Of a stretch of 64,000 nucleotides of DNA, positions 60,911 to 63,966 are shown in pieces; the stretch's first letter is position 1; every line of letters begins with the position of its first letter. A program made the position numbers and the translations under genes. The notes under the pieces were generated by a model. The model was given only the letters and a program-made list of their open reading frames with translations, had not been told where the DNA came from and did no database searches. The stretch lies in assembly GCF_054482525.1 (NCBI RefSeq), contig NZ_CM137006.1, one strand, 5' to 3'.

Positions 60911-61351
60911 ATGGACAAGCAACGCGGTTTTACACTTATCGAACTGATGGTGGTTATTGGCATCATTGCCATTTTAAGCGCCATTGGTATTCCCGCTTAT
61001 CAAAACTACCTGCGCAAAGCCGCACTCACCGACATGCTACAAACCTTTGTGCCTTACCGTACCGCCGTAGAGTTGTGCGCGCTGGAACATGGTGGATTAA
61101 ATACCTGCGACAGTGGCAGCAATGGCATTCCCTCGCCTACCACCACCCGCTATGTTTCAGCCATGAGTGTGGCAAAGGGCGTGGTGTCGCTGACCGGGCA
61201 AGAAAGTCTCAATGGGCTAAGCGTCGTCATGACACCGGGTTGGGATAACGCAAACGGCGTCACCGGTTGGACGCGCAACTGCAATATTCAAAGTGACAGC
61301 GCATTGCAGCAAGCCTGCGAAGATGTCTTCCGTTTTGATGACGCCAACTAA
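60911..61351 (+). CDS. ppdD: Type IV prepilin-like protein PpdD
   Basis: 146 aa; class III signal peptide and N-terminal pilin helix MDKQRG/FTLIELMVVIGIIAIL. Confidence 0.9.
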   Translation: MDKQRGFTLIELMVVIGIIAILSAIGIPAYQNYLRKAALTDMLQTFVPYRTAVELCALEHGGLNTCDSGSNGIPSPTTTRYVSAMSVAKGVVSLTGQESLNGLSVVMTPGWDNANGVTGWTRNCNIQSDSALQQACEDVFRFDDAN

Positions 61352-61360
61352 GGAGCGGCA

Positions 61361-62746
61361 ATGAATATTCCACAGCTCACCGCCCTGTGTCTGCGTTATC
61401 AGGGAGTCTTGCTGGATGCCAGCGAAGAGGTGGTTCATGTTGCGGTGGTCGATGCCCCTTCGCATGAGCTACTGGACGCATTGCATTTCGCTACCACCAA
61501 ACGTATTGAGATCACCTGCTGGACGCGCCAACAAATGGAAGGTCACGCCAGTCGCACACAACAGACATTGCCCGTAGCTGTTCAGGAGAAGCATCAACCC
61601 AAAGCAGAGTTGCTGACTCGAACGTTACAATCTGCGCTGGAACAACGCGCGTCTGATATTCATATCGAACCAGCGGACAATGCCTACCGCATCCGCTTGC
61701 GTATCGACGGCGTATTGCATCCTTTACCGGATGTTTCACCGGATGCCGGAGTCGCATTAACCGCCAGATTAAAAGTGCTGGGCAACCTGGATATTGCGGA
61801 ACATCGCCTGCCGCAGGACGGGCAATTCACTGTCGAACTGGCAGGAAACGCCGTCTCATTTCGTATTGCGACCTTACCATGTCGGGGTGGTGAAAAGGTG
61901 GTATTAAGATTGTTACAGCAGGTGAGTCAGGCACTGGATGTCAACACGCTTGGAATGCAGCCGTTACAACTGGCGGACTTTGCTCATGCCTTGCAACAAC
62001 CACAGGGACTGGTGCTGGTAACAGGCCCTACAGGCAGCGGCAAAACGGTCACGCTTTATAGTGCCCTGCAAACGCTGAATACTGCTGATATTAATATTTG
62101 TAGCGTCGAAGATCCGGTTGAGATCCCCATAGCCGGACTAAATCAGACGCAAATCCATCCGCGTGCCGGGCTCACCTTTCAGAGCGTTTTGCGTGCGTTA
62201 TTGCGCCAGGATCCTGACGTCATCATGATCGGAGAGATCCGCGATGGCGAAACGGCAGAAATTGCCATAAAAGCCGCGCAAACCGGTCACCTGGTGTTGT
62301 CTACCCTACACACTAATTCCACCTGCGAAACGCTGGTACGTTTACAGCAAATGGGAGTCGCCCGCTGGATGCTATCATCGGCGCTTACGCTGGTAATAGC
62401 CCAGCGTCTGGTACGTAAACTTTGCCCACATTGTCGCCGACAGCAAGGGGAGCCCATCCATATTCCAGACAATGTATGGCCGTCGCCGCTGCCCCACTGG
62501 CAGGCACCCGGTTGTGTACATTGCTACCACGGTTTTTATGGTCGCACGGCCTTATTTGAAGTTCTGCCCATAACACCGGTCATACGCCAGCTTATTTCCG
62601 CTAATACCGACGTTGAATCGCTGGAAATGCACGCCCGACAGGCGGGTATGCGTACGCTTTTTGAAAACGGCTGCCTGGCCGTGGAGCAAGGCTTAACCAC
62701 CTTTGAAGAGTTAATCCGCGTATTGGGGATGCCGCATGGCGAGTAA
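61361..62746 (+). CDS. hofB: Type IV pilus/T2SS-like assembly ATPase (GspE/PilB family) HofB
   Basis: 461 aa; Walker [10 protein letters not shown]-terminal tetracysteine motif CPHC...C..C. Confidence 0.9.
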
Positions 62747-63938
62747 GCAACTCTGGCGCTGGCATGGCATAACCGGCGACGGCAATGCGCAAGATGGGAT
62801 GCTATGGGCAGAGAGCCGTGCTTTGCTGCTTATGGCACTACAGCAACAGATGGTTACCCCACTAAGCCTAAAGCGAATCGCCATCAATTCTGCGCAGTGG
62901 CGAGGAGATAAAAGCGCGGAAGTCATTCATCAACTGGCGACGCTACTCAAAGCCGGGTTAACGCTTTCTGAAGGGCTGGCACTGCTGGCGGGACAGCATC
63001 CCAGTAAGCAATGGCAAGCGTTGCTGCAATCGCTGGCGCACGATCTCGAACAGGGCATTGCTTTTTCCAATGCCTTATTACCCTGGTCAGAGGTATTTCC
63101 GCCGCTCTATCAGGCAATGATCCGCACAGGGGAATTGACTGGTAAGTTAGATGAATGTTGCTTTGAACTTGCTCGACAGCAAAAAGCCCAGCGTCAGTTA
63201 GCCGATAAAGTGAAATCAGCGTTGCGTTATCCCATCATCATTTTAGCGATGGCAATCATGGTGGTTGTGGCAATGCTGCATTTTGTTCTACCGGAGTTTG
63301 CCGCTATCTATAAGACCTTTAACACTCCGCTACCGGCGCTAACGCAGGGGATCATGACGCTGGCAAGCTTTAGTGGCGAATGGGGTTGGTTGCTGGTGCT
63401 ATTCGGCTTTCTGCTGGCGATAGCCAATAAGTTGCTGATGCGCCGCCCGACCAGGCTTATCGCGCGGCAGAAATTGCTGTTACGCATCCCGATTATGGGT
63501 TCACTGATGAGGGGACAAAAACTCACGCAGATCTTTACGATTCTGGCGCTGACACAAAGTGCAGGCATTACTTTTTTACAGGGCGTAGAGAGCGTCAGAG
63601 AAACAATGCGCTGCCCGTACTGGGTGCAACTTCTGACACAAATCCAGCACGATATCAGTAACGGTCAACCCATCTGGCTGGCGCTAAAAAATGCCGGTGA
63701 GTTTAGCCCACTCTGTTTGCAATTAGTGAGAACAGGAGAGGCATCCGGCTCGCTGGATCTCATGTTAGACAACCTCGCCCATCATCATCGGGATAACACA
63801 ATGGCGCTGGCGGATAACCTCGCAGCCTTACTGGAACCGGCGTTGCTGATCATAACGGGAGGAATTATCGGTACGCTGGTGGTGGCAATGTATCTGCCAA
63901 TTTTCCATTTAGGCGATGCGATGAGTGGAATGGGATAA
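62736..63938 (+). CDS. hofC: Type IV pilus platform protein (GspF/PilC family) HofC
   Basis: 400-aa polytopic membrane protein; start overlaps the hofB 3' end by 11 nt. Confidence 0.9.
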   Translation: MASKQLWRWHGITGDGNAQDGMLWAESRALLLMALQQQMVTPLSLKRIAINSAQWRGDKSAEVIHQLATLLKAGLTLSEGLALLAGQHPSKQWQALLQSLAHDLEQGIAFSNALLPWSEVFPPLYQAMIRTGELTGKLDECCFELARQQKAQRQLADKVKSALRYPIIILAMAIMVVVAMLHFVLPEFAAIYKTFNTPLPALTQGIMTLASFSGEWGWLLVLFGFLLAIANKLLMRRPTRLIARQKLLLRIPIMGSLMRGQKLTQIFTILALTQSAGITFLQGVESVRETMRCPYWVQLLTQIQHDISNGQPIWLALKNAGEFSPLCLQLVRTGEASGSLDLMLDNLAHHHRDNTMALADNLAALLEPALLIITGGIIGTLVVAMYLPIFHLGDAMSGMG

Positions 63939-63966
63939 CGCTGGCGTGTTGCTCCACGCCAGCGTT
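63937..63966. terminator. Bidirectional hairpin between hofC and the convergent downstream gene
   Basis: Perfect 12-bp stem aacgctggcgtg-ttgctc-cacgccagcgtt, overlapping the hofC stop. Confidence 0.6.

Follow-up and report, generated by a model that had tools for sequence, protein, structure and literature searches.

We found that the perfect hairpin at the end of hofC is probably, in the first place, a stem-loop at the 3' end of the message from convergent guaC, a Rho-dependent transcript, and that the ppdD-hofB-hofC cluster beside it is the known Sxy/CRP-S pilus operon. The stretch analysed, hereafter the window, comprises 64,000 nt of contig NZ_CM137006.1 (RefSeq assembly GCF_054482525.1). 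We assigned the hairpin to guaC, and the guaC transcript to a Rho-dependent route, because of the spacing of the stem, its G·U asymmetry, the composition of the flanking DNA and the 3'-end and bicyclomycin data in the literature. Established here or in published work are the position of the 3' end, the effect of bicyclomycin, the conservation of the hairpin, its spacing and the asymmetry between strands. The features are listed in Table 1.

Table 1. Features of the ppdD-hofB-hofC/guaC region, in window coordinates.
Feature	Position	Strand	Evidence
Candidate CRP-S (Sxy-dependent CRP) site, ppdD promoter, TTCTTCGTAACGCCTCGCAAAT	60764..60785	+	pattern match, 2 mismatches at 60767-60782
ppdD, type IVa major prepilin, 146 aa	60911..61351	+	NF007862, 269 bits vs cut-off 138
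hofB (annotated gspE), PilB/GspE-family assembly ATPase, 461 aa	61361..62746	+	NF007755, 825 bits vs cut-off 617
hofC, PilC/GspF-family inner-membrane platform protein, 400 aa	62736..63938	+	NF007861, 655 bits vs cut-off 401
C-rich, G-poor stretch, candidate rut region, antisense to hofC 3' end	63837..63936	-	33 C, 17 G in 100 nt
MG1655-equivalent positions: guaC Term-seq 3' end (114526 = 63934) and Rho termination region (114530 = 63930)	63930..63934	-	PMC7815308, supplementary files 1, 2
Hairpin, perfect 12-bp stem, 6-nt loop, probably of the guaC mRNA 3' end	63937..63966	-	folding, comparison, published guaC 3' end
guaC (GMP reductase) 3' end, convergent	63973..64000	-	stop codon complement 63973-63975; CDS runs off window

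Three strains, E. coli PCN033 among them, matched the window with 100% identity, and identity to K-12 was 97.1%; the strain is PCN033-like rather than K-12. The ppdD, hofB and hofC reading frames were intact, at the coordinates first reported for them. An earlier note on this DNA had recognized a prepilin, a GspE-like ATPase and a GspF-like platform protein, and the equivalog models for PpdD, GspE/HofB and HofC all scored above their curated cut-offs, in agreement with the RefSeq annotation. PpdD begins with the leader MDKQRG, followed by FTLIELMVVIGIIAIL; cleavage falls before F7, and the protein has four Cys. It thus shows a class III signal peptide, with a short basic leader, Gly at -1, Phe at +1, Glu at +5 and a hydrophobic N-terminal helix (Pfam N_methyl, 39.9 bits). 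It also matched PDB 6GV9/6GMS (E = 1e-89), and the mature chain of 6GV9 begins at residue 7. HofB carries the features of a PilB/GspE ATPase, namely a T2SSE domain (PF00437, 490 bits) with Walker A and B, Asp and His boxes and a tetracysteine motif; GPTGSGKT (Walker A) and CPHC...CVHC are visible in the translation, and the N-terminus is shorter than that of PilB. HofC contains the two T2SSF repeats of a PilC/GspF platform protein (PF00482, 190 bits, 2 stretches).

The three genes form a conserved enterobacterial operon encoding a major type IVa pilin, an assembly ATPase and a platform protein. Its product is the PpdD pilus, also known as hemorrhagic coli pilus (HCP). The order nadC-ppdD-hofB-hofC followed by convergent guaC was present in all 22 loci for which the upstream flank was fetched, and three further loci shared the hofB-hofC/guaC arrangement. 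Within the species, the locus occurred in 5,423 of 5,426 complete E. coli genomes. At a threshold of 99% identity, 3 of 5,424 complete genomes carried the allele in the window, as against 175 and 1,564 for the two flanking regions. Compared with the K-12/EHEC operon, genes, order, spacing and flanks were alike (DNA 97.1% identical to MG1655, proteins 98-99%) and the differences were allelic only. The genes had been described as tightly packed with overlaps; the packing is tight, but hofB/hofC (11 nt) is the sole overlap, and ppdD and hofB are 9 nt apart. The hairpin fills the 34 nt between hofC and guaC. No prepilin peptidase or secretin gene lies between nadC and guaC, as had been noted for the cluster; the remaining parts of the machine are encoded elsewhere, including the prepilin peptidase GspO/PppA, the secretin HofQ with HofMNOP, and the minor pilins PpdAB-YgdB-PpdC. 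No paper that mentions ppdD, hofC and guaC together came up in a literature search.

The dN/dS values of ppdD, hofB and hofC were 0.02-0.12, similar to those of nadC, and the three genes are under purifying selection; the value for ppdD against K-12 was 0.30, based on very few differences. Poor expression in the laboratory, stated in the earlier note, is well documented. No ppdD transcript was detectable before Sxy was supplied, EMSA showed binding of CRP, and qPCR an approximately 90-fold induction dependent on Sxy, CRP and cAMP (PMC1635313), so the expression profiling under competence-inducing conditions that the note suggested has already been published. Of 72 ECOR strains grown in culture, not one produced PpdD, and processed PpdD (an ortholog) was seen after Sxy induction (PMC3330819). 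PpdD pili have been reconstituted with 12 accessory genes, the full set of 13 including gspO and hofQ (bioRxiv 10.1101/856302). The cluster is a textbook type IVa pilus module, induced through Sxy/CRP-S, and the structure of PpdD has been solved.

A CRP-S site was defined as a 22-bp CRP site with C6 and G17 upstream of a competence-gene homologue. The candidate upstream of ppdD has both bases in its core TTCGTAACGCCTCGCA, with a perfect right half-site (TCGCA), a left half-site TTCGT and two mismatches to TGCGA-N6-TCGCA; matches of this quality numbered 27 in the window, against 42.7 expected. The motif TTCG-N6-CTCGCAA was conserved upstream in 22 enterobacterial loci, and the candidate falls within the K-12 fragment bound by CRP in EMSA (PMC1635313); its exact placement is putative. 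A sigma-70 consensus scan of 60600-64000 found no promoter, as expected for a CRP-S promoter, which is activator-dependent. Such a promoter would drive ppdD-hofB-hofC only when the competence regulator Sxy is present, which would explain why an operon silent in culture is nevertheless kept by purifying selection.

The hairpin itself, aacgctggcgtg-ttgctc-cacgccagcgtt, has exactly the sequence, position and perfect 12-bp stem first reported for it. The stem begins 6 nt past the guaC stop codon and covers the last 2 nt of the hofC stop codon. Its folding energy was -21.6 kcal/mol on the + strand and -23.1 kcal/mol on the - strand (z about -6). Perfect hairpins with a stem of at least 12 bp numbered just two in the window, and 30 dinucleotide-preserving shuffles gave none. 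It was present at one place per genome in 5,323 E. coli genomes, and it was still present in strain A24, in which the 3' end of hofC is deleted. The earlier note had taken this hairpin for a bidirectional terminator shared with the convergent gene. A shared, Rho-independent element ending both the ppdD-hofB-hofC and the guaC transcripts would fit a perfect palindrome that folds equally well on both strands and sits between convergent genes, and the hairpin resembles canonical intrinsic terminators and the bidirectional ones at convergent gene pairs (Ju et al. 2019; Wang et al. 2022 preprint) as a G+C-rich palindrome that forms on both transcripts. Unlike them, it has no flanking A-tract or U-tract: the G+C-rich stem-loop of an intrinsic terminator is present, but it is followed by GGGAGATTAC on the + strand and ATCCCATTCC on the - strand, neither of them U-rich. 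A consensus terminator scan, which demands at least 5 T in 8 nt, did not call the hairpin on either strand because no T-run follows the stem. Bidirectional terminators at convergent pairs are established, and a nascent-RNA stem-loop is needed to position the polymerase collisions (bioRxiv 10.1101/2022.10.23.513370); however, this mechanism requires traffic from both sides, and the ppdD operon is silent.

Comparison of 25 enterobacterial loci indicated on which RNA the hairpin is maintained. A stable intergenic hairpin was found in all 25, with the core CTGGCG..CGCCAG kept in 20. In 20 of the 25 loci the stem started 6-8 nt past the guaC stop codon, whereas its distance from the hofC stop codon varied from -2 to +45 nt, which argues against a terminator serving both genes. 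The stem was paired in 90.5% of its cells, the covariation score was reached by none of 500 shuffles, and the compensatory pairs included CG/UA/UG at columns 12-24. Among the non-Watson-Crick stem cells, 13 were G·U when read in the guaC sense and one when read in the hofC sense, and a polymorphism within E. coli followed the same pattern. The stems of relatives thus degrade to C·A mismatches in the hofC sense where the guaC sense stays paired, a further point against bidirectional termination. The wobble changes are mostly C-to-T on the non-template strand of guaC, and a transcription-associated deamination bias could contribute to the asymmetry. In the guaC sense, the 100 nt after the hairpin had a C/G ratio of 1.94; the matching figure for the hofC sense was 0.67. 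The placement of the stem, the bias in G·U pairs and the base composition beyond the hairpin each indicate that selection acts on the guaC-sense RNA alone.

The same comparison bears on whether the palindrome works as DNA, either as a site for a dimeric protein or as a repeated extragenic palindrome of the REP type. The core hardly varies even between genera that are saturated at synonymous sites, and five loci hold a different hairpin at this position, three of which (L009, L011 and L019) look REP-like. Like REP/BIME elements, the hairpin is an intergenic G+C-rich palindrome in a 3' UTR, and REP-like hairpins fill the slot in some Citrobacter species. In contrast to those elements, the E. coli hairpin is single-copy and does not carry the REP consensus, and a repeat family, which would occur in many copies, was rejected on this count. 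Scanning 60000-64000 against Rfam with a permissive E-value threshold likewise matched no family. A protein-binding palindrome was rejected because the spacing of the arms varies from 4 to 8 nt among loci, ill-suited to a fixed dimer site, and the wobble pairs are strand-asymmetric; a G·U versus C·A asymmetry is meaningless for duplex DNA and expected for RNA. Since an RNA 3' end also maps exactly to the hairpin, a DNA-level role is extremely unlikely. CTGGCG..CGCCAG occurred three times in the window against 0.15 expected; this recurrence was not treated as a family because CTG-GCG are the commonest E. coli codons.

Published K-12 data place that 3' end. We carried MG1655 coordinates to the window through a gapless alignment (A1). 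The earlier note had proposed Term-seq, and the published wild-type map shows a guaC-strand 3' end at the hairpin, at MG1655 114526(+), classed as 'primary guaC' and lying 3 nt past the stem (hairpin + AUC); the peak was called under a single condition of the three, M63 glucose, from a modest 753 reads (PMC7815308). DirectRNA-seq with and without bicyclomycin gave a Rho termination region at 114530(+), with a Rho score of 4.78 (p = 5.6e-12) that does not place termination precisely because it is built on 800-nt windows (PMC7815308). The guaC end is thus not Rho-independent in the K-12 data, as an intrinsic terminator would be (PMC7815308). Only the guaC-strand 3' end was listed at the hairpin (PMC7815308); the hofC strand is not expressed under those conditions. 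The hairpin of the earlier note is therefore real and folds on both strands, but the U-tract of a shared terminator is absent, a 3' end and evolutionary constraint are documented for one strand only, and read-through on that strand is bicyclomycin-sensitive; bidirectional intrinsic termination is accordingly improbable. The 61 nt around the hairpin differ between K-12 and the window at one position, outside the stem. Neither guaC nor hofC is listed in the TERMITe supplements, a literature search on ProQ at the 3' end of guaC gave no relevant paper, and no map of 3' ends in Sxy-induced cells was found.

These data also bear on a one-way intrinsic terminator of guaC, in which the top 10 G+C-rich base pairs and UUAUC release some polymerases and Rho serves as a back-up. 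The distance of 5 nt from the last G-C pair to the mapped 3' end is within the range of intrinsic release, three of the first four nucleotides past the G+C-rich stem are U, and the position relative to the guaC stop codon is conserved. UUAUC could support some weak intrinsic termination. As the main route it is unlikely: the T-tract threshold is failed, the downstream sequence is set by hofC coding and is equally U-poor in other genera, and bicyclomycin raises read-through 4.8-fold (PMC7815308).

The 3' stem-loop of a Rho-dependent guaC message has a known counterpart. Dar and Sorek (2018) described protective 3' stem-loops on Rho-dependent transcripts (PMC6061677), and the guaC hairpin fits this class in its spacing, G·U asymmetry and C-rich guaC-sense flank. 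Like that class, it is a stable stem with no U-rich tail and a 3' end just downstream, with bicyclomycin-sensitive read-through and a C-rich, G-poor region directly beyond; protection from PNPase/RNase II is putative here. The guaC stem differs in being unusually long and perfect and in overlapping the stop codon of a convergent silent gene. RNA polymerase leaving guaC would pass the stop codon, transcribe the hairpin 6 nt later and enter the C-rich untranslated stretch antisense to hofC, where Rho would terminate it. Working in the 3'-to-5' direction, exonucleases would then shorten the transcript until they reached the stem, and the stable end would lie 3 nt beyond it. Trimming, protection and the exact rut site are the putative parts of this scheme.

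Because the E. coli palindrome is perfect, the stem can form on hofC-sense RNA too. It is quite unlikely that it also acts toward hofC as an insulator once Sxy induces the ppdD operon. If it did, a hofC-sense stem-loop would fix the point at which hofC and guaC polymerases collide, or cause hofC-sense pausing; guaC would be shielded from antisense read-through, and pilus induction would be coupled to GMP reductase expression.

The finding is otherwise ordinary, since the operon is well known and the hairpin is best read as a guaC 3' stem-loop. Papers or public datasets already cover the operon, its regulation, the structure of the pilin and the 3' end of guaC, and the analysis has little import beyond correct annotation. 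It does provide a useful correction: a perfect hairpin between convergent genes is not by default a bidirectional intrinsic terminator.

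Three open reading frames, lying where the earlier note had placed them, matched curated equivalog models well over the cut-off and were identified as ppdD, hofB and hofC (table below). Over 60700-64000 there was 100% identity with the PCN033, SCU-102 and 19KM1776 chromosomes of E. coli and 97.1% with that of K-12 MG1655, and RefSeq gives the same three genes in PCN033 and MG1655, with nadC on one side and convergent guaC on the other. The genes had been described as overlapping; this was true for hofB and hofC (11 nt), the sole overlap, whereas ppdD and hofB are separated by a 9-nt gap. 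As claimed, the locus contained no prepilin peptidase or secretin gene; the rest of the pilus machine is encoded elsewhere (hofMNOPQ, ppdAB-ygdB-ppdC and gspO), and these loci have been combined for reconstitution.

Features of the pilus locus and other perfect hairpins in the window
Feature	Position	Strand	Evidence or context
ppdD	60911-61351	+	PpdD equivalog match; Pfam N_methyl and Pilin
hofB	61361-62746	+	HofB-type GspE ATPase equivalog match; Pfam T2SSE
hofC	62736-63938	+	HofC equivalog match; two Pfam T2SSF repeats
Conserved block TTCCCGTTT	60831-60839		Cross-genus comparison
Conserved block TTTTTTGCCnCTCGC	60842-60856		Cross-genus comparison
Conserved block GTTTGCCAAAGTAGCGCC	60870-60887		Cross-genus comparison
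Perfect hairpin	1501-1527		Convergent pair erpA/yadS
Perfect hairpin	43677-43704		Convergent pair speD/yacL
Perfect hairpin	58292-58316		Convergent pair aroP/ampE

ppdD-hofB-hofC is an enterobacterial type IVa pilus module that is already well studied, and every aspect of it raised earlier is known. PpdD structures have been solved (6GV9, filament; 6GMS), the mature chain beginning at residue 7 of the window ORF. Cameron & Redfield (PMC1635313) reported that CRP bound a ppdD promoter fragment and that Sxy raised expression of ppdD, whose transcripts had previously been undetectable, 90-fold in a CRP- and cAMP-requiring manner. PpdD was found in culture in 0 of 72 ECOR strains, and Sxy induction yielded processed pilin (Sinha & Redfield, PMC3330819). 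A motif match placed a likely CRP-S core at 60767-60782, and TTCG-N6-CTCGCAA upstream of ppdD was kept in Escherichia, Citrobacter, Salmonella, Intestinirhabdus, Superficieibacter and Enterobacter. Further cross-genus conserved blocks lay between this motif and the ppdD start codon (60831-60887); possible roles include promoter, 5' UTR or a further binding site. The terminator scan also called a terminator-like site on the - strand within the promoter region (60820-60836; CGGGAAAGCAGCTTCCG then GAGTTTTTTA), poorly conserved between PCN033 and K-12. Directly past the E. coli nadC stop, a small inverted repeat, ATCCGC..GCGGAT, was present at 60722-60746; five Citrobacter and Salmonella loci (L007, L008, L012, L017, L019) carried a REP-like GCCGGATAAGGC..GCCGCATCCGGCA at the equivalent position.

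The "cryptic" locus is not decaying. As many as 5,423 of the 5,426 complete E. coli genomes carried it in full, gene order was kept in all related loci fetched, and dN/dS for the three genes (0.02-0.12) was similar to that of the housekeeping neighbour nadC. Surface pilins are usually the fastest to diverge; between Escherichia and Citrobacter (window versus L007-L012 and L014) the opposite was observed, amino acid identity being 88-92% for PpdD, 74-78% for the ATPase HofB and 66-75% for the platform protein HofC. Within E. coli, the segment was more polymorphic than its flanks (60700-64000 versus 57400-60700 and guaC-coaE, L002:4774-6301): genomes at least 99% identical to the window allele numbered 3 of 5,424 for ppdD-hofB-hofC, 175 for ampE-ampD-nadC and 1,564 for guaC-coaE, and dS versus K-12 was 0.10-0.13 in hofB and hofC, compared with 0.05-0.08 in flanking genes. 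Three single E. coli proteins of 596-674 aa (P0005, P0117, P0118) combined T2SSE and T2SSF domains and resemble fusions of HofB with HofC or products of internal deletion. hofC was a pseudogene without its C-terminus in strain A24 (L026) and frame-broken in one C. amalonaticus assembly (L014).

The hairpin aacgctggcgtg-ttgctc-cacgccagcgtt was present at 63937-63966, filling the 34-nt gap between the hofC (63936-63938) and guaC (63973-63975) stops. It is real and non-random: folding energies were -21.6 (+ strand) and -23.1 kcal/mol (- strand), with z about -6, and the 64 kb contained just two perfect hairpins, this one included, whose stems reach at least 12 bp; 30 dinucleotide-preserving shuffles gave none. 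The stem was as perfect as the earlier note had held, but its reading as a bidirectional terminator was only partly supported: neither strand had a T-run after the stem (GGGAGATTAC on +, ATCCCATTCC on -), and a consensus scan that called eight weaker sites nearby did not call it. It is not a canonical terminator. Rfam gave no match, and a REP-type repeat was ruled out since the hairpin is single copy across 5,323 E. coli genomes. Three further perfect hairpins with 10-12 bp stems matched Term-seq-table sequences for 3' ends between convergent genes (PMC7815308); the speD hairpin, followed by ATTTATTTAC, shares the core CTGGCG..CGCCAG, and those of erpA/yadS and aroP/ampE were without a clear T-tract.

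We compared 25 loci from Escherichia species, Citrobacter, Salmonella, Intestinirhabdus, Superficieibacter and Enterobacter. In all of them the spacer between hofC and guaC contained a stable, G+C-rich hairpin, with the core CTGGCG..CGCCAG kept in 20; because the other five had a different hairpin (three REP-like), it is a hairpin as such that is conserved. Across 15 distinct hairpins, 90.5% of alignment cells were paired, several stem pairs showed compensatory changes, and the covariation score was matched by none of 500 shuffles; in slid registers pairing fell to 21-44%. At 63941-63962, the core CUGGCG/CGCCAG was almost invariant in this alignment (A3), among genera with saturated synonymous sites: four pairs never vary and the two others vary in one sequence each. 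This exceeds the need of a purely structural stem, yet five loci substitute unrelated hairpins.

Non-Watson-Crick cells included 13 G·U in guaC sense versus one in hofC sense, where they turn into C·A mismatches, and the guaC-sense fold of imperfect palindromes was always the more stable; the E. coli polymorphism CACGCC to CACACC showed the same strand asymmetry. Part of the G·U asymmetry may reflect mutation bias linked to transcription, since most wobble changes were C-to-T on the guaC non-template strand. In 20 of the 25 loci the stem began 6-8 nt past the guaC stop, whereas its distance to the hofC stop ranged from -2 to +45 nt, and C/G over 100 nt past the stem was 1.94 in guaC sense (rut-like) versus 0.67 in hofC sense. 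These three asymmetries (G·U cells, stop-codon spacing, downstream C/G) point to the guaC strand. Strain A24 kept the hairpin despite loss of the hofC 3' end. Given the perfect palindrome in E. coli, hofC-sense RNA can in principle fold into this stem too; the 25-locus comparison gave no sign of selection for it.

The checks proposed earlier are already partly in published data, as Sxy-induced expression and wild-type Term-seq. Term-seq (M63-glucose sheet; Adams et al. 2021, PMC7815308) gave a dominant 3' end at MG1655 114526(+), classed primary for guaC and antisense to hofC; by the printed sequence it is the hairpin plus AUC, corresponding to window 63934 on the - strand. DirectRNA-seq with and without bicyclomycin placed a Rho termination region at 114530(+) (Rho score 4.78, p = 5.6e-12), and the same tables listed no hofC-strand 3' end. 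The class to which this pattern belongs was defined by Dar & Sorek 2018 (PMC6061677): Rho-dependent transcripts that end just past stable stem-loops without a U-tract, where the stems shield RNA from PNPase and RNase II and are immediately followed by rut sites. Some weak intrinsic release may occur at UUAUC. The hairpin is best explained as the 3' stem-loop of guaC mRNA, tied to Rho-dependent termination.
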